From a virus (Duplodnaviria; Heunggongvirae; Uroviricota; Caudoviricetes): a stretch of DNA of 35,499 nucleotides. Of this stretch, positions 2-35,499 are shown piece after piece. The first letter of the stretch is position 1. Every line of letters begins with the position of its first letter. The position numbers and the translations under genes are program-made. Under the pieces are notes generated by a model, which worked only from the letters and a program-made list of their open reading frames with translations, did not search any database and had not been told where the DNA came from. The stretch lies in IMG/VR virus record IMGVR_UViG_2718217860_000003; one strand, given 5' to 3'.

Positions 2-1297
2 TTAATTTTTCATTGCTTCGTTATGGGGCATGGTTGGGGCAAACTCGCTTAACTGTGTATTTAACAAAGCTACCTGTGCATTATTGTTTTCAGACATCCA
101 TTTTCCGTATACCTGAAATACCATTTGCGCATCTGCATGGCCCATCTGGTTTGCTATAAATGCCGGGTTAGCACCAGCTGTCAGCGACCAGCAGGCATAA
201 GTATGTCTCGACTGATATGATTTTCGATGGCGGAGTCCGGCACGTTTTATCGCTGCGTCCCACATCTGCCTTATTGAGTCAACGGTAAAATGGTCACCAT
301 AATTTTTTACTCTCGCTGACACTTCAGGTTGAAAAACAAAGGTGCATTTTTGTTTTTCTGTTCTGCCATACTCTCTGAGGTGAACATCAATGATATGCTC
401 TTTGCTCAGTCTCGTTAATGTCATCTGACTCCGGAGAGCGTCGATTGCTGGCTTAATAAGATGAATGACCCGATTGGTTCCTGCCTGTGTTTTTGGTACC
501 GTGAAACGGTCTTTTGCTAAATTTCTCCTGATCATCATTGTTCCATTTTTCAGATCTATGTCCTCCCATCCAAGTGCACACAGCTCACCAGGGCGAACGC
601 CAGTATAAACAGAAACACACCATAAATTTTTTGCTTGCTGATTTCTGCACGCATCGATAAGACGGATAAATTCCTCCCGCGAAAGAGGATCCGGAATGCT
701 TCTTGATTCCTTTAATGGCGAGATCCCCTTAAACGGATTATCTGCCAGGTAACCGTTATCAACACCAAACTGGAACACGGCGTTAAGATTTGTCATGTAA
801 TTATTTACAGTTACAGCCGATCTCCCTGGTTGTGTAACAATATAGTTACTTTTGGGGATCTGGTATCCAGTCAGTAGCTCTTTACGAACCTCCAGTAATT
901 TTTCTTTATTAATCGATGAGGCAAGATTTTTTTCACCGATTATGCTCAGGATATTTTTGATGACGGCACGGTATGTGTTGAGTGATGTTTTGGCGACTTC
1001 AGTTTCTTTCAGTGCCAGAAATTTTTCAGCCAGTTCTTTTATGGTTAAATCTTGTCGGGCCTCACCAAATTTTTCCAGATTGCGTGAGGAGGGAAACTGT
1101 TTTGCATAGTCGAAAACACCAGTTTTTATTGCGTAACAAACAGAGGCGCGTAGTTCACCTGCAACGCGCCTGTTTTTTGCTGTGTCAGGAACCCCCAGAT
1201 TTTCCCTGACTCTTACGCCTTTATAAACAAACCAGATACGTAATTTCCCTCCATGGTTTTCCACGCCTGTCGGATATTTCATTTCAACTTCTCTCAT
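2..1297 (-). CDS. int: Tyrosine site-specific integrase (phage integrase family)
   Basis: 431-aa ORF with a C-terminal H-x-x-R and Tyr-containing region (LRHRKSYQSRHTYAC...VYGKW) typical of tyrosine recombinases; first gene of the prophage, next to an excisionase-like gene. The likely true start is the second Met at 1282 (MKYPTGVE...), preceded by AGAGAAG. Confidence 0.9.
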   Translation of the reverse strand: MREVEMKYPTGVENHGGKLRIWFVYKGVRVRENLGVPDTAKNRRVAGELRASVCYAIKTGVFDYAKQFPSSRNLEKFGEARQDLTIKELAEKFLALKETEVAKTSLNTYRAVIKNILSIIGEKNLASSINKEKLLEVRKELLTGYQIPKSNYIVTQPGRSAVTVNNYMTNLNAVFQFGVDNGYLADNPFKGISPLKESRSIPDPLSREEFIRLIDACRNQQAKNLWCVSVYTGVRPGELCALGWEDIDLKNGTMMIRRNLAKDRFTVPKTQAGTNRVIHLIKPAIDALRSQMTLTRLSKEHIIDVHLREYGRTEKQKCTFVFQPEVSARVKNYGDHFTVDSIRQMWDAAIKRAGLRHRKSYQSRHTYACWSLTAGANPAFIANQMGHADAQMVFQVYGKWMSENNNAQVALLNTQLSEFAPTMPHNEAMKN

Positions 1298-4750: not shown

Positions 4751-4808
4751 AAAAAGGGCGGCAGAGCAGTCACGGAGTAAAACTGATACCGCCAAACGTC
4801 ACCAGAAA
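4751..4808 (-). ncRNA. dicF: DicF small RNA (ftsZ-targeting antisense sRNA) with its intrinsic terminator
   Basis: The minus strand reads UUUCUGGUGACGUUUGGCGGUAUCAGUUUUACUCCGUGACUGCUCUGCCGCCCUUUUU, a GGCGG...CCGCC hairpin followed by a U-run, lying between ydfC and dicB as in the Qin dicB operon. Ends are approximate. Confidence 0.85.
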
Positions 4809-5148: not shown

Positions 5149-5367
5149 CTAACGCGGGTATGTAATCATTCTGGCAATGCTTAATGCCGCTGCTTTTTCC
5201 AGATTGGTGATATCCTGCTCCAGAGCGGACAGATTTTCAGCCTGCTTAGCCCTGGCTTCATTAGCCCATTTCAGATCCTGCGCTGCATTAATTTTCTGGC
5301 GCATCCACTCATAAAGTTCATCATCGGTATAGTCTGGCGCGATGATGACGGGTTCTCGTTTCTGCAT
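5149..5367 (-). CDS. ydfC: YdfC-like prophage protein
   Basis: 72-aa ORF in the conserved position between ydfB and dicF. Confidence 0.7.
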   Translation of the reverse strand: MQKREPVIIAPDYTDDELYEWMRQKINAAQDLKWANEARAKQAENLSALEQDITNLEKAAALSIARMITYPR

Positions 5368-11341: not shown

Positions 11342-12014
11342 ACATTCAAAAAAAAGCTAATCTTCTATAATAACGAAATTCAGCTGGCACAATTAAAGAT
11401 TAATTGCCACCAATTTCTTGATTTTATAATTTTATCTAAATGTTTTTGATTAATCTAGTCCTAAAAGAAACCTACTGCATAAATATTTATGCTGATGACC
11501 CACTCCCTGTTCGTTAACACATAGCAACGTTAGTAATGCATCCTAAGTGATCAATATTTTTGCTAGCTTCATCTGCTCGCTCAAAGGGAACTATAATGTT
11601 GGCTTGCGTGTGACTTGGCATGTTTAAAGAAGTGCTGGTGGTGACTGGTTGCTGTTTTCCATTTCCACAGAACAAAATCATAGAAACTATACCCAGTAGT
11701 TGTATTGAATCACTGACGAGACAGCCTCATATTTATCAGGACTGGTGTACGTCCAATACAGGAGGTTGTGGTGCTGGTTCTCAAATGTGCGCTGGCTATT
11801 GCTGCTGTAATGGCAATTTATTGTCTTGCTGTTGTTCTTATGGATCACCTTTCTGATTGATTTCATATTGGCGAGGTAACGGTAGTTAAGTAGAATTGCT
11901 GCGGGTGCTTGAGGCTATCTGCCTCGGGCATCAACACCAAAGGCAGATAGAGAAAAGCCCCAGTTAACATTACGCGTCCGGCAAGACGCTTAACATTAAT
12001 CTGAGGCCATATCT

Positions 12015-12227
12015 ATGCTCTACACACGTAGGTTAGCCTCTTACGTGCCGAAAGGCAAGGAGAAGCAGGCTATGAAGCAGCAAAAGGCGATGCTAATCGC
12101 CCTGATCGTCATCTGTTTAACCGTCATAGTGACGGCACTGGTAACGAGGAAAGACCTCTGCGAGGTACGAATCCGAACCGGTCAGACGGAGGTCGCTGTC
12201 TTCACAGCTTACGAACCTGAGGAGTAA
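12015..12227 (+). CDS. Mok-like leader ORF in frame with hokD (N-terminally extended reading frame)
   Basis: The track ORF starts 19 codons upstream of the Hok Met in the same frame. Confidence 0.35.
   Translation: MLYTRRLASYVPKGKEKQAMKQQKAMLIALIVICLTVIVTALVTRKDLCEVRIRTGQTEVAVFTAYEPEE
12072..12227 (+). CDS. hokD: Hok/Gef-family type I toxin (HokD/RelF-like)
   Basis: 51-aa product MKQQKAMLIALIVICLTVIVTALVTRKDLCEVRIRTGQTEVAVFTAYEPEE with AAGGAG RBS; single TM helix and conserved Hok C-terminus. Confidence 0.9.
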   Translation: MKQQKAMLIALIVICLTVIVTALVTRKDLCEVRIRTGQTEVAVFTAYEPEE

Positions 12228-15439: not shown

Positions 15440-15515
15440 GGTCCTTTAGCTCAGTGGTGAGAGCGAGCGACTCATAATCGCCAGGTCGCTGGTTCAAATC
15501 CAGCAAGGGCCACCA
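15440..15515 (+). tRNA. tRNA with CAU anticodon (ileX/ileZ-type tRNA-Ile2 if lysidine-modified; reads as Met by anticodon alone)
   Basis: Cloverleaf: acceptor GGTCCTT/AAGGGCC, D-arm GCTCAGTGGTGAGAGC, anticodon loop CTCATAA, T-arm GGTTCAAATCC, 3' ACCA. One A-C mismatch at the base of the anticodon stem. Confidence 0.8.
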
Positions 15516-15621: not shown

Positions 15622-15698
15622 GCGTTGTTAGCTCAGCCGGACAGAGCAATTGCCTTCTAAGCAATCGGTCACTGGTTCGAATCCAGTACAGCGCGCCA
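15622..15698 (+). tRNA. tRNA-Arg (UCU anticodon)
   Basis: Acceptor GCGTTGT/ACAGCGC, D-arm AGCTCAGCCGGACAGAGC, anticodon loop CTTCTAA, T-arm GGTTCGAATCC, 3' GCCA. Confidence 0.8.
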
Positions 15699-16162: not shown

Positions 16163-16695
16163 ATACATATCTGGATTATCACCTGTTACGGTAAAAAGTG
16201 ATTGCTTACTGTTTTTGTGAATGGCATTGCAGCAGCCGGATAATGTCAGTGCTGGCTGACGGTGTGCTGGTGGCGGGTGTGGTGGTTGTTGCTTTCCCGT
16301 TGCTGAAAAAGAAAACGCCAGACTGTTAGCCGGGTATCAGTTAGCGGGAGAAATTTTTAAATACTTCACAATTCAGGCGGTTGACTGTTCTCTGGTTTGC
16401 GGGGAGTTTGTTAAAAGAAACTGGCATGGTGAATCCCCCTGTGCGGAGGGGCAATCAGCGAGTAGGCATATGGGATAATCGCGGATTCAGGTGCTGGTAC
16501 TGAATTCACCGGGAGGCACCCGGCACCATGCACTTCAATAGATTCTCTCCACATTATGGATATTCTTTCAGAATATCCCACGCAGACTTTGTGTAAATGT
16601 TAACAAATGTGCGTTTTATTTGATCTGATTCGCTGTTTGAGCGTCCAAAACAACGGTATATATAATCCTTTACTATATGACATATGTGAGGAAAA

Positions 16696-21337: not shown

Positions 21338-21638
21338 ATGGATCGAGAGTTGAAAAATCTGACGCTGAATATCAGTCAACTGGCGGCACTGTCAGGTGTA
21401 CATCGCCAGACTGCTGCGGCAAGGCTGCAAAATCTACCCGTTGCAGGGGGGCATGAAAGCAACCTCAAGCTTTATCGGGTGGTTGATATTGTGTCGGCAT
21501 TTCTGGCATTGCCACCGCCGGTTGCAGAAGGCGAAATGGACGCGCATGAGCGCAAAGCCTGGTATCAGTCTGAACGTGAGCGTCTTAAGTTCGAACAGGA
21601 AACGGCACAACTCATTCCGGCCAGTGATGTCAGACGGG
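21338..21638 (+). CDS. Terminase small subunit (Nu1/NohA-like), 3'-truncated by the assembly gap
   Basis: N-terminal HTH-like segment (LNISQLAALSGVHRQTAAARL); the ORF runs into the N-run. Confidence 0.6.
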
Positions 21639-21738
21639 NNNNNNNNNNNNNNNNNNNNNNNNNNNNNNNNNNNNNNNNNNNNNNNNNNNNNNNNNNNNNN
21701 NNNNNNNNNNNNNNNNNNNNNNNNNNNNNNNNNNNNNN
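21639..21738. other. Assembly gap (100 N) between terminase and tail gene M
   Basis: Run of 100 ambiguous bases; terminase-large through tail gene H are absent from the window. Confidence 0.99.
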
Positions 21739-21765
21739 TGGTCGGTTAAGTGGAGCATATCGGTA

Positions 21766-22095
21766 ATGGAGACGTTTCACTGGAAAGTGCGCCCGGATAT
21801 GAATGTGGTATCAGAGCCGAAAGTGGTGACAGTGAAGCTGGGCGATGGTTATGAACAGCGTCGTGTGGCGGGACTGAATAACCAGTTGTCGACTTACAGC
21901 GTGACGATACGTGTTCGTAAATGTGAACACCCATCTTTAAAAGCCTTTCTGGAACGGCACGGTGGCGTCCGCGCATTTCAGTGGACGCCACCTTATGACT
22001 GGAAGCCGATCAGGGTGGTTTGTCGTAAATGGTCGGCGAGCGTAGGGGCGCTGTGGGTAACCATAACGGCAGATTTTGAACAGGTCGTGGCATAG
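21766..22095 (+). CDS. M: Tail tip assembly protein M (lambda M-like)
   Basis: 109-aa ORF METFHWKVRPDMNVVSEPKVVTVKLGDGYEQR..., same length and pattern as lambda gpM. Confidence 0.9.
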   Translation: METFHWKVRPDMNVVSEPKVVTVKLGDGYEQRRVAGLNNQLSTYSVTIRVRKCEHPSLKAFLERHGGVRAFQWTPPYDWKPIRVVCRKWSASVGALWVTITADFEQVVA

Positions 22096-24157: not shown

Positions 24158-27100
24158 ATGGGTAAAGGCAGCAGTAAGGGGCATACCCCGCGCGAAGCAA
24201 AGGACAACCTGAAGTCCACGCAGTTGCTGAGTGTGATCGATGCCATCAGCGAAGGGCCGGTTGAAGGTCCGGTGGATGGATTAAAAAGCGTGCTGCTGAA
24301 CAGTACACCGGTGCTGGACAGTGAGGGGAATACTAACATCTCCGGTGTCACGGTGGTGTTCCGGGCAGGTGAGCAGGAACAGACACCGCCGGAGGGATTT
24401 GAATCATCAGGTTCCGAGACGGTACTGGGTACGGAAGTGAAATACGACACGCCGATCACCCGGACCATCACGTCGGCAAACATTGACCGTCTGCGCTTTA
24501 CCTTCGGTGTGCAGGCACTGGTGGAAACCACCTCAAAGGGGGACAGGAATCCGTCGGAAGTTCGCCTGCTGGTTCAGATACAACGTAACGGTGGCTGGGT
24601 GACGGAAAAAGACATCACCATTAAGGGCAAAACCACCTCGCAGTATCTGGCCTCGGTAGTGGTGGATAATTTGCCGCCGCGCCCGTTCAACATCCGGATG
24701 CGCAGGATGACGCCGGACAGCACCACAGACCAGCTGCAGAACAAAACGCTCTGGTCGTCATACACCGAAATCATCGATGTGAAACAGTGCTACCCGAACA
24801 CGGCACTGGTCGGCGTACAGGTGGATTCGGAGCAGTTCGGCAGCCAGCAGGTGAGCCGTAATTATCATCTGCGCGGGCGCATTCTGCAGGTGCCGTCGAA
24901 CTATAACCCGCAGACGCGGCAATACAGCGGTATCTGGGACGGAACGTTTAAGCCAGCATACAGCAACAACATGGCCTGGTGTCTGTGGGATATGCTGACC
25001 CATCCGCGCTACGGCATGGGGAAACGTCTTGGTGCGGCGGATGTGGACAAATGGGCGCTGTATGTCATCGGCCAGCATTGCGATCAGTCGGTGCCGGACG
25101 GTTTTGGCGGCACGGAGCCGCGCATCACCTGTAATGCGTACCTGACCACACAGCGTAAGGCGTGGGATGTGCTCAGTGATTTCTGCTCGGCGATGCGCTG
25201 TATGCCGGTATGGAACGGGCAGACGCTGACGTTCGTGCAGGACCGACCGTCGGATAAGGCGTGGACCTATAACCGCAGTAATGTGGTGATGCCGGATGAT
25301 GGCGCGCCGTTCCGCTACAGCTTCAGCGCCCTGAAAGACCGCCATAATGCCGTTGAGGTGAACTGGATTGACCCGAACAACGGCTGGGAGACGGCGACAG
25401 AGCTTGTGGAGGATACGCAGGCCATTGCCCGTTACGGTCGTAACGTCACGAAGATGGATGCCTTTGGCTGTACCAGCCGGGGGCAGGCACACCGCGCCGG
25501 GCTGTGGCTGATTAAAACGGAGCTGCTGGAAACGCAGACCGTGGATTTCAGCGTGGGTGCCGAAGGGCTTCGCCATGTGCCGGGTGATGTTATTGAAATC
25601 TGCGATGATGACTATGCCGGTATCAGCACCGGCGGGCGCGTGCTGGCGGTGAACAGCCAGACCCGGACGCTGACGCTCGACCGTGAAATCACGCTGCCAT
25701 CCTCCGGTACCACGCTGATAAGCCTGGTTGACGGAAGTGGCAATCCGGTCAGCGTGGAGGTCCAGTCCGTCACCGACGGCGTGAAGGTAAAAGTGAGCCG
25801 TGTTCCTGACGGCGTTGCCGGATACAGCGTATGGGGGCTGAAGCTGCCGACGCTGCGCCAGCGCCTGTTCCGCTGCGTGAGTATCCGTGAGAACGATGAC
25901 GGCACGTATGCCATCACCGCCGTGCAGCATGTACCGGAAAAAGAGGCCATCGTGGATAACGGGGCGCACTTTGACGGCGACCAGAGCGGCACGGTGAATG
26001 GTGTCACGCCGCCAGCAGTGCAGCATCTGACCGCAGAAGTCACCGCAGACAGCGGGGAATACCAGGTGCTGGCCCGCTGGGACACGCCGAAGGTGGTGAA
26101 GGGCGTGAGCTTCCTGCTTCGCCTGACCGTGGCAGCGGATGACGGCAGTGAGCGGCTGGTCAGCACGGCCCGGACGACGGAAACCACATACCGCTTCACG
26201 CAACTGGCGCTGGGGAATTACAGGCTGACAGTCCGGGCGGTAAATGCGTGGGGACAGCAGGGCGATCCGGCATCGGTATCGTTCCGGATTGCCGCACCGG
26301 CAGCGCCGTCTCGGATTGAGCTGACGCCGGGCTATTTTCAGATAACCGCCACGCCGCATCTTGCGGTTTATGATCCGACGGTACAGTTTGAGTTCTGGTT
26401 CTCGGAAAAGCGGATTGCGGATATCAGGCAGGTTGAAACCACAGCACGCTATCTTGGTACGGCGTTGTACTGGATAGCCGCCAGTATCAATATCAGGCCG
26501 GGCCATAATTATTATTTTTACGTTCGCAGTGTGAACACCGTTGGCAAATCGGCATTCGTGGAGGCTGTTGGTCAGCCGAGTGATGACGCATCCGGCTATC
26601 TGGATTTTTTCAAAGGCGAGATAGGGAAAACCCATCTGGCTCAGGAGCTGTGGACGCAGATTGATAACGGTCAGCTTGCGCCTGACCTGGCTGAAATCAG
26701 GACATCCATTACGGATGTCAGCAATGAAATCACACAGACCGTCAATAAGAAACTGGAAGACCAGAGTGCGGCAATCCAGCAGATACAGAAAGTTCAGGTT
26801 GATACAAATAATAACCTGAACAGCATGTGGGCTGTGAAGCTGCAGCAGATGCAGGACGGACGCCTTTATATCGCGGGTATCGGTGCCGGTATTGAGAATA
26901 CGCCAGCAGGAATGCAGAGTCAGGTGCTGCTGGCGGCAGACAGGATTGCGATGATTAATCCTGCGAATGGCAACACAAAGCCGATGTTTGTTGGTCAGGG
27001 CGATCAGATATTCATGAACGAAGTGTTCCTGAAATATCTGACGGCTCCCACCATTACCAGCGGCGGTAATCCTCCGGCATTTTCCCTGACACCGGACGGG

Positions 27101-27637
27101 CGGCTGACGGCGAAAAATGCCGATATCAGCGGTAACGTGAATGCGAACTCCGGGACGCTCAACAATGTCACGATAAATGAGAACTGTCAGATTAAAGGGA
27201 AACTGTCAGCCAACCAGATTGAAGGCGATATTGTCAAAACAGTGGGTAAGGCTTTCCCGCGGGACTCCCGGGCACCGGAGCGGTGGCCATCAGGGACCAT
27301 TACCGTCAGGATTTATGACGATCAGCCGTTTGACCGGCAGATTGTTATTCCCGCGGTGGCGTTTCGTGGCGCTAAACATGAGCGGGAGAATAACGATATT
27401 TATTCGTCATGCCGCCTGATAGTGAAGAAAAACGGTGCTGAAATTTATAACCGTACCGCGCTGGATAATACGCTGGTTTATACAGGTGTTATTGATATGC
27501 CTGCTGGTCGCGGTCACATGACGCTGGAGTTTTCGGTATCAGCGTGGCTGGTAAATGACTGGTATCCCACAGCCAGTATCAGTGATTTGCTGGTTGTGGT
27601 GATGAAGAAATCCACAGCAGGTATCACGATTAGCTGA
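24158..27637 (+). CDS. J: Host-specificity tail tip protein J (central tail fibre)
   Basis: 1159-aa [24 protein letters not shown]... with a lambda-J-like C-terminal receptor-binding region. Confidence 0.95.
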
Positions 27638-27705: not shown

Positions 27706-28305
27706 ATGCGTAAAGTTTGTGCAGCCATTTTGTCCGCAGCCATCTGTCTGGCCGTATCCGGTGCGCCTGCATGGGCGTCTGAGCAGCAGGCCACGCTGAG
27801 CGCAGGGTATCTTCATGCCCGTACGAACGCTTCCGGCAGCGATAATCTGAACGGGATTAACGTGAAATACCGTTATGAGTTTACGGACACGCTGGGGCTG
27901 ATTACGTCATTCAGTTATGCCAACGCTGAAGATGAGCAAAAAACGCATTACAGCGATACCCGCTGGCATGAGGATTCCGTGCGTAATCGCTGGTTCAGCG
28001 TGATGGCGGGGCCGTCTGTGCGCGTGAATGAATGGTTCAGCGCGTATGCGATGGCGGGTATGGCTTACAGCCGTGTGTCGACTTTCTCCGGGGATTATCT
28101 CCGCGTAACTGACAACAAGGGGAAAAAGCACGATGTGCTGACCGGAAGTGATGACGGTCGCCACAGCAACACGTCTCTGGCGTGGGGAGCTGGCGTGCAG
28201 TTTAACCCGACCGAATCCGTGGCCATTGATGTCGCTTATGAAGGCTCCGGCAGTGGTGACTGGCGCACTGACGGGTTCATCGTGGCTGTTGGTTATAAAT
28301 TCTGA
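27706..28305 (+). CDS. lom: Outer-membrane protein Lom (Ail/OmpX family)
   Basis: 199-aa ORF with signal peptide (AICLAVSGAPAWA) and beta-barrel C-terminal ...VGYKF. Confidence 0.9.
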   Translation: MRKVCAAILSAAICLAVSGAPAWASEQQATLSAGYLHARTNASGSDNLNGINVKYRYEFTDTLGLITSFSYANAEDEQKTHYSDTRWHEDSVRNRWFSVMAGPSVRVNEWFSAYAMAGMAYSRVSTFSGDYLRVTDNKGKKHDVLTGSDDGRHSNTSLAWGAGVQFNPTESVAIDVAYEGSGSGDWRTDGFIVAVGYKF

Positions 28306-28332
28306 TTAGCCAGGTAACACAGTGTTATGACA

Positions 28333-28358
28333 GCCCGCCGGTTCAGGCGGGCTTTTTT
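28333..28358 (+). terminator. Intrinsic terminator downstream of lom
   Basis: GCCCGCC-GGTTCA-GGCGGGC hairpin followed by TTTTTT. Confidence 0.7.
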
Positions 28359-28369
28359 GTGGGGTGAAT

Positions 28370-31300
28370 ATGGCAGTAAAAATTTCAGGTGTACTGAAAG
28401 ACGGCACAGGAAAACCGGTACAGAACTGCACAATCCAGCTGAAAGCAAAACGTAACAGTACCACGGTGGTGGTGAACACGCTGGCATCTGAAAATCCGGA
28501 TGAAGCCGGGCGTTACAGTATGGACGTTGAGTACGGTCAGTACAGCGTTATTCTGTTGGTGGAAGGATTCCCGCCGTCACATGCCGGGACCATCACAGTG
28601 TATGAAGATTCCCGACCCGGTACGCTGAATGATTTTCTCGGTGCCATGACGGAGGATGATGCCCGTCCGGAGGCACTGCGCCGTTTTGAGCTGATGGTGG
28701 AAGAGGTGGCGCGTAACGCGTCCGTGGTGGCACAGAACACGGCAGCCGCGAAGAAGTCAGCCAGTGATGCCAGCACATCAGCCCGTGAGGCGGCAACCCA
28801 TGCGACTGATGCTGCAGGCTCAGCACGCGCAGCCAGCACGTCAGCCGGACAGGCCGCGTCGTCGGCTCAGTCAGCGACTTCCAGCGCAGGAACGGCATCA
28901 ACAAAGGCCACTGAAGCATCAAAAAGTGCTGCCGCTGCAGAGTCCTCAAAAAGCGCGGCAGCTACCAGTGCCAGTGCCGCAAAAACGTCAGAAACGAATG
29001 CTGCAGCGTCACAACAATCAGCAGCCACTTCTGCATCCACCGCGACTACGAAAGCGTCAGAAGCTGCCACCTCAGCCCGGGATGCGGCGGCTTCAAAAGA
29101 GGCGGCAAAATCATCAGAAACGAACGCATCCTCGAGCGCCAGTAGCGCAGCTTCCTCGGCAACAGCGGCAGGAAATTCCGCGAAGGCGGCAAAAACGTCA
29201 GAGACGAACGCCAGGTCTTCTGAAACGGCAGCGGGACAGAGCGCCTCGGCTGCGGCAGGCTCAAAAACAGCGGCTGCGTCGTCTGCCAGTGCAGCGTCAA
29301 CAAGTGCCGGGCAGGCCTCAGCCAGTGCTAGCGCCGCCGGAAAATCGGCAGAAAGCGCCGCATCGTCTGCTTCAACAGCCACAACGAAGGCTGGCGAAGC
29401 CACTGAACAGGCCAGCGCAGCAGCGAGGTCTGCTTCCGCAGCGAAGACATCCGAAACGAACGCGAAAGCGTCGGAAACCAGCGCAGAATCCTCAAAAACG
29501 GCTGCCGCATCGTCAGCCAGTTCGGCGTCGTCATCGGCATCATCTGCGTCTGCTTCAAAAGATGAGGCGACCAGACAGGCGTCAGCAGCGAAGGGTAGCG
29601 CCACGACGGCATCCACGAAGGCGACAGAGGCAGCTGGCAGTGCGACGGCAGCAGCTCAGAGCAAAAGTACGGCGGAATCCGCGGCAACGCGCGCTGAGAC
29701 AGCGGCAAAACGGGCAGAGGATATTGCATCCGCCGTGGCGCTTGAGGATGCGAGCACGACGAAAAAGGGGATAGTACAGCTCAGCAGTGCGACCAACAGC
29801 ACTTCCGAGTCACTGGCGGCAACGCCAAAAGCCGTTAAGGCCGCGTATGACCTGGCTAACGGGAAATACACCGCACAGGATGCAACGACAGCACAGAAAG
29901 GGATAATCCAGCTAAGCAGCGCGACCAACAGCACGTCTGAAACGCTGGCGGCAACGCCAAAGGCAGTAAAATCAGCCTATGACAATGCAGAGAAACGTCT
30001 GCAGAAAGACCAGAACGGCGCTGATATACCCGATAAGGGACGCTTCCTGAACAACATTAACGCGGTCAGTAAAACAGACTTTGCTGATAAGCGTGGTATG
30101 CGTTATGTGCGGGTTAACGCTCCTGCAGGTGCAACATCTGGAAAATATTACCCTGTTGTTGTTATGCGTTCTGCTGGCTCAGTAAGCGAACTGGCATCAA
30201 GGGTCATTATCACCACGGCAACGCGAACCGCAGGCGATCCGATGAATAACTGCGAGTTTAACGGATTTGTTATGCCTGGTGGCTGGACTGACAGGGGGCG
30301 TTATGCTTATGGAATGTTCTGGCAATATCAAAACAATGAACGAGCCATCCACTCAATAATGATGAGTAATAAGGGCGATGATTTGCGCTCTGTGTTCTAT
30401 GTTGATGGCGCTGCTTTCCCTGTTTTTGCGTTTATCGAAGATGGCCTGTCAATATCCGCACCTGGTGCTGATCTCGTTGTTAATGATACGACCTATAAGT
30501 TTGGGGCAACAAATCCAGCGACTGAATGTATCGCGGCGGACGTTATCCTTGATTTTAAGAGTGGGCGTGGTTTTTATGAGTCTCATTCGTTAATCGTTAA
30601 CGATAACTTGTCGTGCAAAAAACTTTTTGCCACAGACGAAATTGTAGCGCGTGGTGGTAATCAGATTCGAATGATAGGTGGGGAGTATGGGGCATTATGG
30701 CGTAATGATGGCGCTAAAACTTACCTGCTGCTTACCAATCAAGGTGATGTTTATGGTGGATGGAATACATTAAGACCGTTTGCTATTGATAACGCAACCG
30801 GCGAACTGGTTATTGGAACCAAGCTGTCTGCAAGTCTGAACGGTAACGCATTGACAGCAACAAAGCTGCAAACGCCAAGACTGGTTTCTGGGGTTGAGTT
30901 TGATGGTTCAAAAGATATTACTTTAACCGCCGCGCATGTGGCTGCTTTTGCCAGAAGGGCAACGGATACATATGCCGATGCGGATGGTGGCGTTCCCTGG
31001 AATGCCGAATCAGGCGCTTACAATGTCACCCGCTCTGGCGACAGCTATATTCTGGTTAACTTCTATACCGGAGTCGGAAGTTGCCGGACCCTGCAGATGA
31101 AGGCGCATTACAGAAATGGTGGTCTGTTCTACCGTTCTTCAAGAGACGGTTATGGTTTTGAGGAAGACTGGGCAGAAGTTTATACCTCGAAAAATCTTCC
31201 ACCAGAAAGCTACCCAGTCGGCGCACCAATCCCGTGGCCATCAGATACCGTTCCGTCTGGTTATGCCCTGATGCAGGGGCAGACTTTTGACAAATCTGCC

Positions 31301-31900
31301 TACCCGAAACTTGCAGCCGCTTATCCGTCAGGCGTGATCCCTGATATGCGTGGCTGGACGATTAAGGGCAAGCCCGCCAGTGGTCGTGCCGTATTGTCTC
31401 AGGAACAGGACGGCATAAAATCGCATACCCACAGCGCCAGCGCATCCAGTACTGATTTGGGGACGAAAACCACATCGTCGTTTGATTACGGCACTAAATC
31501 CACGAATAACACTGGTGCGCATACCCATAGTTTAAGTGGCAGCACGAATGCAGCTGGTAATCACAGCCATAGAGATGGCCGTCGATTTAACCCCAGTGTT
31601 TTTAAAGATACTTATCAATATGGTTATACAAGCTCAGGTCAAAATACCTGGGGTGTACAAGGCTCAGTAGGTATGTCTACGGGGGCGTTAGCTAATACCA
31701 GTACAGATGGTAACCATAGCCACTCACTGTCCGGCACAGCAGCATCTGCAGGTGCACACGCACATACTGTCGGTATTGGTGCACACACGCACTCCGTTGC
31801 GATTGGTTCACATGGACACACCATCACCGTTAACGCTGCTGGTAACGCGGAAAACACCGTCAAAAACATCGCATTTAACTATATTGTGAGGCTTGCATAA
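28370..31900 (+). CDS. stf: Side tail fibre protein Stf
   Basis: Begins [26 protein letters not shown]... (the track ORF starts 2 codons earlier at GTG); long Ala/Ser-rich low-complexity shaft, tandem repeat units, His-rich HxH C-terminal tip. Confidence 0.9.
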
Positions 31901-32481
31901 TGGCATTCAGAATGAGTGAACAACCACGGACCATAAAAATTTATAATCTGCTGGCCGGAACTAATGAATTTATTGGTGAAGGTGACGCATATATTCCGCC
32001 TCATACAGGTCTGCCAGCAAACAGTACCGATATTGCACCGCCAGATATTCCTGCTGGCTTTGTGGCTGTTTTCAACAGTGATGAGGCATCGTGGCATCTC
32101 GTTGAAGATCATCGGGGAAAAACCGTCTATGACGTGGCTTCCGGCGACGCGTTATTTATTTCTGAACTTGGCTCGTTACCGGAAAATGTCACCTGGTTAT
32201 CGCCGGAAGGGGAATATCAGAAGTGGAACGGCACAGCCTGGGTGAAGGATACGGAAGCAGAAAAACTGTTCCGGATCCGGGAGGCGGAAGAAACAAAAAA
32301 CAACCTGATGCAGGTAGCCAGTGAGCATATTGCGCCGCTTCAGGATGCTGCAGATCTGGAAATTGCAACGGAGGAAGAAATCTCGTTGCTGGAAGCCTGG
32401 AAGAAGTATCGGGTGTTGCTGAACCGTGTTAATACAACAACTGCACCGGATATTGAATGGCCAGTAGCACCTATAGGGTAA
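31900..32481 (+). CDS. tfa: Tail fibre assembly protein Tfa
   Basis: 193-aa ORF; start overlaps the stf stop (TAATG); conserved Tfa C-terminus ...[31 protein letters not shown]. Confidence 0.9.
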
Positions 32482-33070
32482 ATTCGTAATGATTACCTAA
32501 ATACGTTATTCTTTTGTTCAAAAAGTGATTTTTCTATAGGTAGGGAGTATGTTCTTGGATTAAGAATAAAAAATCGCCATGAAAGAGCTTCATGGCGAGT
32601 ACATAAACGTACAAAATATGATGAAAGTAGAGTGGCGTAAGCCACTATATTAAGATATGACAATAGCGAAGAAAAGTAAATAACATTTTATGGGCGTTTA
32701 ATTGTTAATTATAAAAACTAGAGTGCCCGATATTGTTTATCTTGCTTTAAAATAATGTACTCAAACCAAATTTTTGAGCTAAAAGCTCAAATAATATAAA
32801 TGCAATGATAATGTTTAATAAGACAATTAGCTTGCTTTGTATTTTCATTTCGGAATACTGTTAAGTAACTTTGATGACACTAACAATAGATCGGAATTTT
32901 CTTAGAGTCAATGGTCACTGTTTTTGCTTGCAAAGCAAATCTTTTTGGTGGTTATAAGTTTTCTTAATATAGTCACCTATGCAACTTGTTCCGTGTGGAG
33001 ATTAAAGGTTAAAATTTAATGCGAAGATGGAATTATAATATATTTTTTTATAATTAATTTAACCTTAACA

Positions 33071-33169
33071 TCGTTGCTGGCGGCATGGAAGAAATATCGG
33101 GTCTTGCTGATGTCGTGTTGGCACTTCCTTAGTGCGGTTATCGAATGGCCAGCTGTACCTGTGGGGTAA
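33071..33169 (+). pseudogene. Relic 3' fragment of a second tfa gene
   Basis: DNA homologous to the last 33 codons of tfa ([13 protein letters not shown]...IEWPAVPVG*), with no upstream reading frame. Confidence 0.7.
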
Positions 33170-33301
33170 AAACTTTATATGGGTGCTATTTTTATAATAG
33201 CTGGTAAAAACTGGCCGAACTGAAATTCACTGTTGATAAAAAAGATGTGTTTGAGTGTATGTCATTGTTTTCTTAATGGAATCCACTAGAATGCAGCGAA
33301 T

Positions 33302-33499
33302 TTAAGAAGGTGGGTTTTTATTGGAATATAAACTACAATAATGCTCAACTCGTTCGTAGAATTGTTTTTTCTTATTTTTTGGAATGCTAACCATTATATG
33401 CATTATGGGGGCGATACTTCCTGATAATTTACATGATGCATACATTGAAGCAATAAATTCAATATCATTGTCATCAAAGTTAAAGCTTTCTCCGTCCAT
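33302..33499 (-). CDS. Hypothetical small protein (uncertain)
   Basis: 65-aa ORF with AAGGA about 7 nt upstream of the ATG, in an AT-rich gene-poor segment. Confidence 0.3.
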   Translation of the reverse strand: MDGESFNFDDNDIEFIASMYASCKLSGSIAPIMHIMVSIPKNKKKQFYERVEHYCSLYSNKNPPS

Positions 33500-34215
33500 T
33501 TCAATTCCTTATGTGTTTGGCACAACTGATGCTGTATCCCATGAGAATTTATGCAAGTTGTTATGTTTGATTTGATATTGCAATGATAATTGTAGCTAAT
33601 TGTTTTCAATTGAGTGAAAGTTTATTTCGAGTGATTAAGTCGAAAAAAAAGATTTCTCACGGTTAGTAAGCGTATTAGGTTAGTATTCAGATATGAATGG
33701 TATTAATGACTAAATTTTCAATCATATATGGATTTTTATGCTGATGAAGATGTTTTATTTGGCGATTCGTCAAGCATCTTCACTTAAGTAATCGTATATT
33801 TTAAGAGTGCAAAAGAGAAAGGGACAACGTTGCTCGCACTCTGGATTAAATATAGGGTGTTGTTAAACTGCGTTGATACATAATTGTACCGGATATTGAG
33901 TGGTCTGAAGTCCCAGTCATTAAGTAATCGTTTCGTGATATGCCGCAGAAACGTTGTATGCAATAACGTTCTGCGGTTGGCTGATGCACTTTCGAGAGTG
34001 TATTGAATAATTTCAAGCCGTTATTGTTTTTACGCGTAACACCATGAAAAGATTGCTTATCTGTTGGGGTGTTTTTTGGGGCATATATGGGACAGAAATA
34101 GGCCACAGATAGATAGTAAGATCGAACTCAGGATGTTTTTGAAAAAATGTAACTATCTGAAAAAACCTAGAAAGCGCCAAGGAAACCACAGAATGAGAAA
34201 AAACATCTGTGAATT

Positions 34216-35499
34216 ATGGATTTCCAGTTATATTCGCTCGGCGCAGCGTTAGTGTTTCATGAAATATTTTTTCCTGAATCATCAACGGCAATGGCGTTAA
34301 TTCTGGCAATGGGAACCTACGGTGCAGGTTATGTGGCGCGTATTGTCGGAGCATTTATTTTCGGCAAAATGGGCGACAGAATAGGGCGTAAAAAAGTGCT
34401 CTTTATTACCATCACCATGATGGGGATCTGTACCACCTTAATTGGTGTGTTACCGACCTATGCACAGATTGGTGTTTTTGCACCCATCTTGCTGGTGACG
34501 TTGCGTATTATTCAGGGGTTGGGTGCAGGTGCGGAAATTTCCGGTGCCGGTACGATGCTGGCGGAATATGCGCCAAAAGGTAAGCGCGGAATTATCTCCT
34601 CATTTGTGGCTATGGGAACTAACTGCGGAACCTTGAGCGCAACGGCAATCTGGGCCTTTATGTTCTTCATTCTCAGTAAAGAGGAACTGCTGGCGTGGGG
34701 ATGGCGTATACCGTTCCTGGCGAGCGTTGTCGTGATGGTCTTTGCTATCTGGTTGCGTATGAATCTGAAAGAAAGCCCGGTCTTTGAGAAGGTTAACGAC
34801 AGTAACCAACCGACAGCAAAACCTGCACCTGCTGGTAGCATGTTCCAGAGCAAATCCTTCTGGCTGGCAACAGGGCTGCGTTTTGGTCAGGCGGGTAACT
34901 CCGGGTTAATTCAGACTTTCCTTGCAGGCTATTTAGTGCAGACGTTATTGTTTAACAAAGCAATTCCAACAGATGCATTGATGATCAGTTCGATTCTCGG
35001 CTTTATGACCATTCCGTTCCTTGGTTGGTTATCCGATAAAATTGGTCGCCGGATCCCGTATATTATTATGAATACCTCCGCGATTGTGCTGGCATGGCCA
35101 ATGCTTTCTATCATTGTAGATAAAAGCTATGCCCCGAGCACCATTATGGTTGCACTGATTGTGATTCATAACTGTGCGGTGCTGGGATTATTTGCTCTGG
35201 AAAACATTACCATGGCAGAAATGTTCGGCTGTAAAAACCGCTTTACCCGGATGGCTATTTCTAAAGAAATTGGTGGTCTTATCGCTTCCGGTTTTGGTCC
35301 TATCCTGGCGGGTATTTTCTGCACCATGACGGAATCCTGGTATCCGATCGCCATTATGATCATGGCATATTCAGTAATTGGTTTAATCTCTGCGCTGAAA
35401 ATGCCAGAGGTGAAAGACCGTGATTTAAGTGCGCTGGAAGACGCTGCGGAAGATCAACCGCGTGTTGTAAGAGCTGCGCAACCTTCCAGAAGTCTGTAA
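34216..35499 (+). CDS. ydfJ: MFS transporter (YdfJ-like metabolite:H+ symporter), 5'-truncated at the prophage junction and running off the window end
   Basis: 427-aa ORF with multiple TM helices and an MFS signature (GKMGDRIGRKKV); the first TM helix and N-terminus are missing; no stop within the window. Confidence 0.75.
   Translation: MDFQLYSLGAALVFHEIFFPESSTAMALILAMGTYGAGYVARIVGAFIFGKMGDRIGRKKVLFITITMMGICTTLIGVLPTYAQIGVFAPILLVTLRIIQGLGAGAEISGAGTMLAEYAPKGKRGIISSFVAMGTNCGTLSATAIWAFMFFILSKEELLAWGWRIPFLASVVVMVFAIWLRMNLKESPVFEKVNDSNQPTAKPAPAGSMFQSKSFWLATGLRFGQAGNSGLIQTFLAGYLVQTLLFNKAIPTDALMISSILGFMTIPFLGWLSDKIGRRIPYIIMNTSAIVLAWPMLSIIVDKSYAPSTIMVALIVIHNCAVLGLFALENITMAEMFGCKNRFTRMAISKEIGGLIASGFGPILAGIFCTMTESWYPIAIMIMAYSVIGLISALKMPEVKDRDLSALEDAAEDQPRVVRAAQPSRSL

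Follow-up and report, generated by a model that had tools for sequence, protein, structure and literature searches.

How did the 3′ end of a second tail fibre assembly gene (tfa) come to lie alone downstream of an intact tfa, and does it mark a host-range switching region? The question is raised by a 99-bp segment (33071-33169) in a stretch of 35,499 nucleotides, referred to here as the window, which a preliminary description had read as a relic that probably marks a past recombination or deletion involving an alternative tail-fibre/tfa cassette, by implication of the kind inverted by Pin/Gin-type invertases. The window is a lambdoid prophage in E. coli, integrated in the host gene ydfJ at the chromosomal site that the Qin prophage occupies in K-12. 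It includes an integrase gene (2-1297, minus strand), a match to the Rfam family DicF (4756-4807), gene J (24158-27637), an ORF in the position of lom (27706-28305) and, at the right-hand end, a 5′-truncated ydfJ (34216-35499, plus strand), which is the host gene targeted by integration and is annotated as such by PGAP at identical loci. A terminase small-subunit fragment (21338-21766) abuts a minor tail gene at position 21766, and the terminase match covers only residues 1-101 of its ORF (region of the join, 21338-22095); deletion has removed the large terminase subunit, the portal, the head genes and most of the tail genes, the major ones included. Because the terminase fragment is fused to a tail gene and the head and most tail genes are gone, the prophage is defective. 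Elsewhere it contains gathering-level Rfam matches to the sok antitoxin RNA (11903-12077) and the STnc100 sRNA (16395-16585), as well as two tRNA genes (15440-15512 and 15622-15695), also at the gathering level; all are on the plus strand.

The tail fibre region begins with an intact side tail fibre gene, stf (28364-31900, plus strand; 1178 aa), with matches to the Pfam families phage_tail_N, Phage_fiber_2, Gp34_trimer and Collar. It is followed by the intact tfa (31900-32481, plus strand), which encodes a tail fibre assembly chaperone of 193 aa (Pfam Caudo_TAP, PF02413; E-value 3e-42) and is 96.6% identical to lambda tfa. The 1.7-kb interval between tfa and ydfJ consists of serial units, each of them a tfa 3′ end with its own downstream DNA, in the order tfa, segA, relic 1, segB, relic 2, segC and truncated ydfJ. 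The repeated part is the conserved 3′ block of tfa (32364-32481, plus strand), and it recurs as relic 1 (33067-33169, plus strand), which corresponds to the last ~33 codons of an older tfa, and as relic 2 (33808-33927, plus strand). The spacers have a G+C content of 26-40%, compared with ~50% in stf and tfa, and all of the ORFs within 32482-34215 are shorter than 70 aa. The boundary between prophage and host lies at ~34210, and genomes without the prophage arm match only from 34210 onwards.

This arrangement is carried by 576-588 of 5426 complete E. coli genomes (~10%), mostly at 99% identity or more, and its presence in so many complete genomes means that relic 1 is not an artefact of sequencing or assembly. 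Two locus variants depart from it: in NZ_CP031134.1 (H1) an IS1 insertion within 32300-34300 splits the match into two pieces, and in L015 a larger deletion fuses terminase/portal-like sequence to a point 8 nt before the tfa stop, with segA, relic 1, segB and relic 2 still in place.

The similarity of relic 1 to the end of tfa is far above chance. In a pairwise global alignment of 33071-33169 with the last 33 codons of the intact gene (32383-32481), 75 of 102 columns are identical (73.5%), and the local score of 45 compares with 12 on average, and 18 at most, when the 1.7-kb intergenic region was shuffled 300 times. A profile for nhmmer, made exclusively with the 3′ ends of intact tfa genes at other loci (lambda, K-12 tfaQ and tfaD, mEp460_ev081 and the IMG/VR contig L029), was searched against both strands of the 35.5-kb window and gave exactly three matches, all on the plus strand: the end of tfa itself (32363-32478, E-value 6.6e-37), relic 2 (33808-33919, 9.3e-17) and relic 1 (33067-33167, 5.5e-15). 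Relic 1 begins 590 bp past the tfa stop, on the same strand, with homology starting 1-4 nt to the left of 33071 (at ~33067), and it ends in a TAA codon at 33167-33169. Its frame is closed by a stop 19 codons upstream, within AT-rich, non-coding-looking sequence that belongs to segA as far as 33061, and ~160 N-terminal tfa codons are absent. The preliminary description was thus correct as to the homology with the last 33 codons of tfa, the strand, the terminal TAA and the lack of upstream coding sequence.

What is left of the reading frame has decayed. Indels of +1, +2 and −3 (net zero) scramble ~10 central codons of relic 1, which read MSCWHFLSAV and are unlike tfa; relic 2 has an in-frame stop and a frameshift. 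Among 20 locus variants, relic 1 has 6.5% variable sites and relic 2 has 2.4%, compared with 4.0% for segA and 3.3% for segB. The 31-aa ORF of relic 1 has no match in Pfam or NCBIfam, no promoter-like site on the plus strand precedes either relic, and at the one locus where the annotation was inspected PGAP marks neither. Exact matches with the resident tfa block reach at most 10 nt for relic 1 and 12 nt for relic 2. Both relics now look inert, and relic 1 is, judging from its sequence, what remains of the 3′ terminus of a once full-length tfa, without function and free of coding constraint.

The origins of the flanking segments can be traced separately. The stf gene is 95-98% identical to those of phages ev099 and mEp332 and belongs to a resident module of the ev099/mEp332 type; in these two functional phages the match runs continuously through stf, tfa and segA (at least 28234-33061, 95-98% identity). 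The AT-rich segA (32482-33061) is the native follower of this tfa in ev099, mEp332, PhiR70_1 and a CPS-53-like prophage of strain 673, the last two of which also have both the tfa end and segA. In the three genomes in which endpoints were mapped—ev099, mEp332 and strain 673—homology ends at 33061 with unrelated sequence beyond, and a further tfa block behind segA is absent from all three. The junction with relic 1 (33062-33066) consists of 5-9 nt of filler with no microhomology, and the joint looks like plain illegitimate joining.

Within segA there is a 33-aa hydrophobic ORF (32747-32848, minus strand; MKIQSKLIVLLNIIIAFILFELLAQKFGLSTLF) that resembles the stress-response membrane protein YncL, matching NCBIfam NF000537 with an E-value of 1.3e-5 and 25 bits, below the cut-off of 35. 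Its protein sequence is 100% conserved in ev099, mEp332 and strain 673, and it is unannotated in all of those loci. A promoter-like site (32911-32883) and a terminator-like hairpin (32598-32574) flank it, both on the minus strand, and the ORF may be a phage-borne gene for a small membrane protein.

The AT-rich segB (33170-33807) is the native follower of the older tfa. In L029 an intact tfa is followed directly by segB-like DNA, and window positions 33071-33499 are collinear with this contig at 73% identity, from inside its intact tfa into a 65-aa ORF; the contig ends inside segB. It follows from this collinearity that relic 1 is the terminus of a tfa that was once complete, and segB the DNA that lay downstream of it. 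The 65-aa hypothetical ORF (33302-33499, minus strand; WP_001421370.1) is confined to this E. coli locus, save for a homologue with 72% identity that follows an intact tfa on the IMG/VR contig UViG_2721755676_000008. Other contexts for segB were sought with the 65-aa ORF and a conserved 32-mer as queries: none was found in the GTDB species genomes, and IMG/VR yielded only the same locus and L029. A search of 5.8 billion proteins with the 65-aa ORF returned only near-identical E. coli proteins, whose contigs carry the same locus. A direct intermediate, with intact tfa, segB and relic 2 at ydfJ, was not found among complete E. coli genomes, GTDB, IMG/VR or the protein search.

Relic 2 lies ~640 bp after relic 1, ends in a TAA codon at 33925-33927, and is a second, older tfa 3′ remnant. 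It is 68-71% identical to the resident tfa end, 83.6% identical over 152 nt to the lambda tfa end with 50 nt of downstream sequence, and 79% identical over 235 nt to a prophage located next to sitABCD (L003). It runs on into the native tfa-downstream DNA of lambda, mEp460, PhiR49_2, Salmonella phage SPF_0923 and L003. This native DNA forms the first part of segC (33928-34215), which also contains the attP-proximal (attR) arm of Qin-type phages and, from 33943, matches K-12 Qin, Tritos and mEp460_ev081 at 85-88% identity. Relic 2 lies between the two copies of an exact 12-nt direct repeat, TTAAGTAATCGT (33784-33795 and 33920-33931), of which the right-hand copy covers its stop codon and the left-hand copy is 13 nt upstream of its left end. 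We considered this repeat as a target-site duplication or microhomology and set it aside, since chance alone would produce one or two such 12-mers in 2.4 kb of AT-rich DNA; it could be a chance occurrence in such DNA or a trace of junction formation.

With a donor-type arrangement in ev099 and mEp332 and an ancestor-type arrangement in L029, the earlier suggestion of a past recombination or deletion involving another tail-fibre/tfa module is borne out. Relic 1 is very probably a vestige left when a tail-fibre module was replaced, or deleted, through illegitimate joining in what is now a defective Qin-type prophage. We infer the order of events and their exact mechanism as follows. A full-length tfa with segB would once have been resident in the prophage lineage, and a block of the ev099/mEp332 type (stf-tfa-segA, at least 4.8 kb) would have come to sit upstream of it. 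Recombination between a phage and the prophage could have brought this about, through a crossover in homologous sequence somewhere on the left and illegitimate joining on the right, and so could a deletion inside a composite or tandem prophage; the two routes are indistinguishable, as their product is identical. At the right joint, segA (ending at 33061) would have become attached near codon 160 of the resident tfa, with the loss of all but the last ~100 nt of that gene. An earlier event of the same kind would have left relic 2 beside the attR arm. There would then have been at least two replacements, each with its right joint inside the previous tfa and sparing the last 100-120 nt, and the region would be a stack of scars in which the newest module is leftmost and the oldest scar lies next to attR.

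There are precedents for such exchange. The C-terminal third of lambda tfa matches cryptic-prophage loci of K-12 that were modelled as Red recombination partners (Poteete et al., PMC545071), and recombinants of lambda with the Rac and Qin prophages have been recovered in the stf/tfa region (De Paepe et al., PMC3945230). Two observations sit less comfortably with this account. The direct intermediate was not found, L029 being only 73% identical, and the left ends of the independent relics seen here all fall within the last 30% of tfa, a clustering that is not obviously predicted by purely random breakpoints.

Other explanations of relic 1 must be weighed against module replacement. It might be functional—as a 31-aa micro-ORF (33074-33169), as a small RNA like that of the Rfam family IS009, or as a homology 'anchor' for module exchange—and in keeping with this a 31-codon ORF with a TTG start is present, there is a weak IS009 match (32 bits, E-value 3e-5), and the arrangement is found in ~10% of complete E. 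coli genomes. However, IS009 (RF02111, classed in Rfam as 'Gene') itself overlaps tfa at 32243-32441 (plus strand) with full score, and its full-score matches in this window and in K-12 tfaD and K-12 tfaQ (L030 6857-7055; L002 3010-3208) lie entirely inside the intact genes; what the family describes would appear to be the conserved 3′ portion of tfa, not an independent RNA gene. In a permissive scan of 32440-34260 relic 1 scored 32 bits and relic 2 40.8 bits, both below the gathering threshold of 117, and since the family sits inside tfa coding sequence these matches are echoes of tfa homology. With the middle codons garbled, no plus-strand promoter-like site ahead of the relic, no protein family match and conservation no higher than in the flanks, the micro-ORF and small-RNA readings were dropped. 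As to an anchor, efficient homologous recombination requires a pairing length of more than 10 nt, and the 10-nt longest exact match of relic 1 is too short for it, even though the C-terminal third of tfa is a proven recombination substrate (PMC545071, PMC3945230). Taken together, a function for relic 1 is very unlikely. Least probable of all is a local duplication, in which insertion of segA as cargo in or behind tfa would have duplicated the 3′ end of the resident gene, with relic 1 as the copy, since decayed. The tfa 3′ block does occur on both sides of cargo in the DLP12 prophage of K-12 and in phage 2G7b; but the identity between relic 1 and the resident block is just 73.5%, whereas tfa and segA are 96% identical to ev099/mEp332, and the segA-bearing genomes have one block only. 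Moreover, relic 1 and segB have diverged from L029 to the same degree (73% identity), and relic 1 therefore travels with segB and not with segA.

The possibility raised at the outset, that the relic is the alternative tfa of an invertible stf-tfa/tfa′-stf′ segment of the Pin/Gin/Cin type whose invertase and partners were later deleted, has in its favour that relatives at the same site (K-12 Qin, Tritos, mEp460_ev081 and PhiR63_1) have pinQ/R right after the tfa block, with pinQ/R and ydfK lying between this block and segC in the Qin-type relatives. As in the Mu G/Gin, P1 C/Cin and e14 P/Pin systems, more than one tfa-related sequence is found near the fibre genes, and relatives sharing the att site carry pin. 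But in the invertible segments of Mu (G), P1 (C) and e14 (P) the alternative tfa is inverted, whereas both relics here are direct repeats on the tfa strand, and the locus has no inverted genes, no 26-bp sites and no adjacent serine invertase. The nhmmer search of both strands found no stf or tfa fragment on the minus strand of the window, which also has no long inverted repeats, and no homologue of PinQ or YdfK was found anywhere in it (tblastn with K-12 PinQ gave nothing below an E-value of 2). Crossover sites of the type TTnTCnnAAACCnnGGTTTnnGAnAA, a 26-bp consensus that we take to be of the Gin/Pin/Hin/Cin type, were absent from the window at up to three mismatches and from the window and six comparison loci at up to four; this is a weak negative, because within the flanks covered the pin-bearing loci were equally blank. 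Furthermore, the pin-carrying relatives themselves have no second tfa, and relic 1 is already accounted for by its collinearity with the tfa-segB unit of L029. The remark that no invertase gene remains was apt insofar as pinQ/R occupies the corresponding slot in relatives at the same site, as the suggested comparison with pin-bearing prophages brought out; there is no sign that this lineage ever had pin between the relics. As far as sequence comparison goes, the link to a Pin/Gin-type cassette is unsupported and the reading of the segment as a relic of recombination stands, and we consider an origin by host-range switching even less probable than a function for the relic.

Tfa 3′ scars are already known and are common in lambda-like phages, and relic 1 is in this respect ordinary. 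The closest parallel is the tfaD-ybcY(pseudogene)-tfaX region of DLP12 in E. coli K-12 (b0561-b0563), where a second tfa 3′ fragment likewise lies on the same strand, ~0.8-1 kb downstream, with AT-rich or cargo DNA between the fragments, at the distal end of a defective lambdoid prophage. Fragments of the DLP12 type were noted by Poteete et al. as matches to the C-terminal third of lambda tfa (PMC545071). The spacer of DLP12 contains a methyltransferase pseudogene (ybcY) in opposite orientation, and its second fragment, annotated as the gene tfaX, extends further, with homology from ~nt 409 of tfa onwards; in the window, unlike in DLP12, the fragment is ~100 nt long, is unannotated by PGAP (one locus) and is one of two stacked relics. 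Phage 2G7b has a DLP12-like arrangement in a viable genome, with a methyltransferase gene between its two tfa blocks. As in the window, the functional lambdoid phages Tritos, 2G7b, PhiR63_1, PhiR49_2, Lambda_2E9 and mEp460 have kept the last 60-145 nt of a tfa. Their remnants lie directly behind a different fibre module and ahead of variable cargo (pin, dinI, sitABCD), whereas relic 1 follows the intact tfa of the replacing module itself and 580 bp of its downstream DNA. Some such fragments are labelled by PGAP as pseudogenes, 'tail fiber assembly protein, partial, missing N-terminus'.

One tfa 3′ remnant recurs unchanged in many functional lambdoid phages; its left end corresponds to window position 32364, and it lies 19 nt behind the same 97-aa hypothetical gene. 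It was located in L003 (3981-4101), L007 (4001-4115), L008 (2645-2762) and L051-L053 (from 2501), and is present in Tritos, 2G7b, PhiR63_1, PhiR49_2 and Lambda_2E9. Its right-hand neighbours vary (pinR/Q, dinI, sitD or a methyltransferase gene), and mostly nothing is annotated under the remnant itself. In mEp460 a remnant lies directly behind the side tail fibre gene. There is also a recurrent slot for cargo insertion ~15-50 nt past the tfa stop (window ~33940-33980), with the same flanking sequences on both sides; it holds ea47 in lambda and pin-ydfK in Qin-type phages, and is empty in mEp460 and PhiR49_2. In lambda the slot is bounded by 22609 and 24161-24256 (L010 3609 and 5162-5257), and it is seen in L008 and L051 as well.

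The left ends of truncation that could be fixed lie at ~nt 440, 465 and 485 of the 582-nt tfa, a clustering that is partly a bias of detection, because conservation between tfa types is confined to the 3′ third. That of relic 2 is the equivalent of 32364 (nt 465) and is shared with the widespread relic behind the 97-aa gene, although the upstream sequence differs. One might propose that it is not by chance that the last ~100-140 nt of tfa are kept: they would serve fibre and cargo modules as a portable homology arm, or 'linker', on the right-hand side, and modules retaining them would spread more successfully. We put this forward as a tentative idea that is unlikely to be correct as it stands.

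By itself relic 1 matters little, as a decaying scar in a cryptic prophage. The locus does provide a clean, datable example of the replacement of a lambdoid tail-fibre (host-range) module, with identifiable counterparts of both the donor type and the ancestor type. The relics also show that tfa fragments of ~100 nt are overlooked by genome annotation, and such fragments can confuse small-RNA predictions, as the coincidence of Rfam IS009 with the conserved region of tfa illustrates. If the tfa 3′ block does act as a homology arm, then modules bearing it would be swappable into any tfa-bearing lambdoid phage by Red/RecA recombination, which would account for the truncations in the last third of tfa and for the presence of the block before pin, dinI, sitABCD and methyltransferase genes. 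Non-random clustering of the breakpoints would back the old 'linker sequence' idea of modular phage evolution, and stacked relics would then be a readable record of successive replacements of host-range modules.
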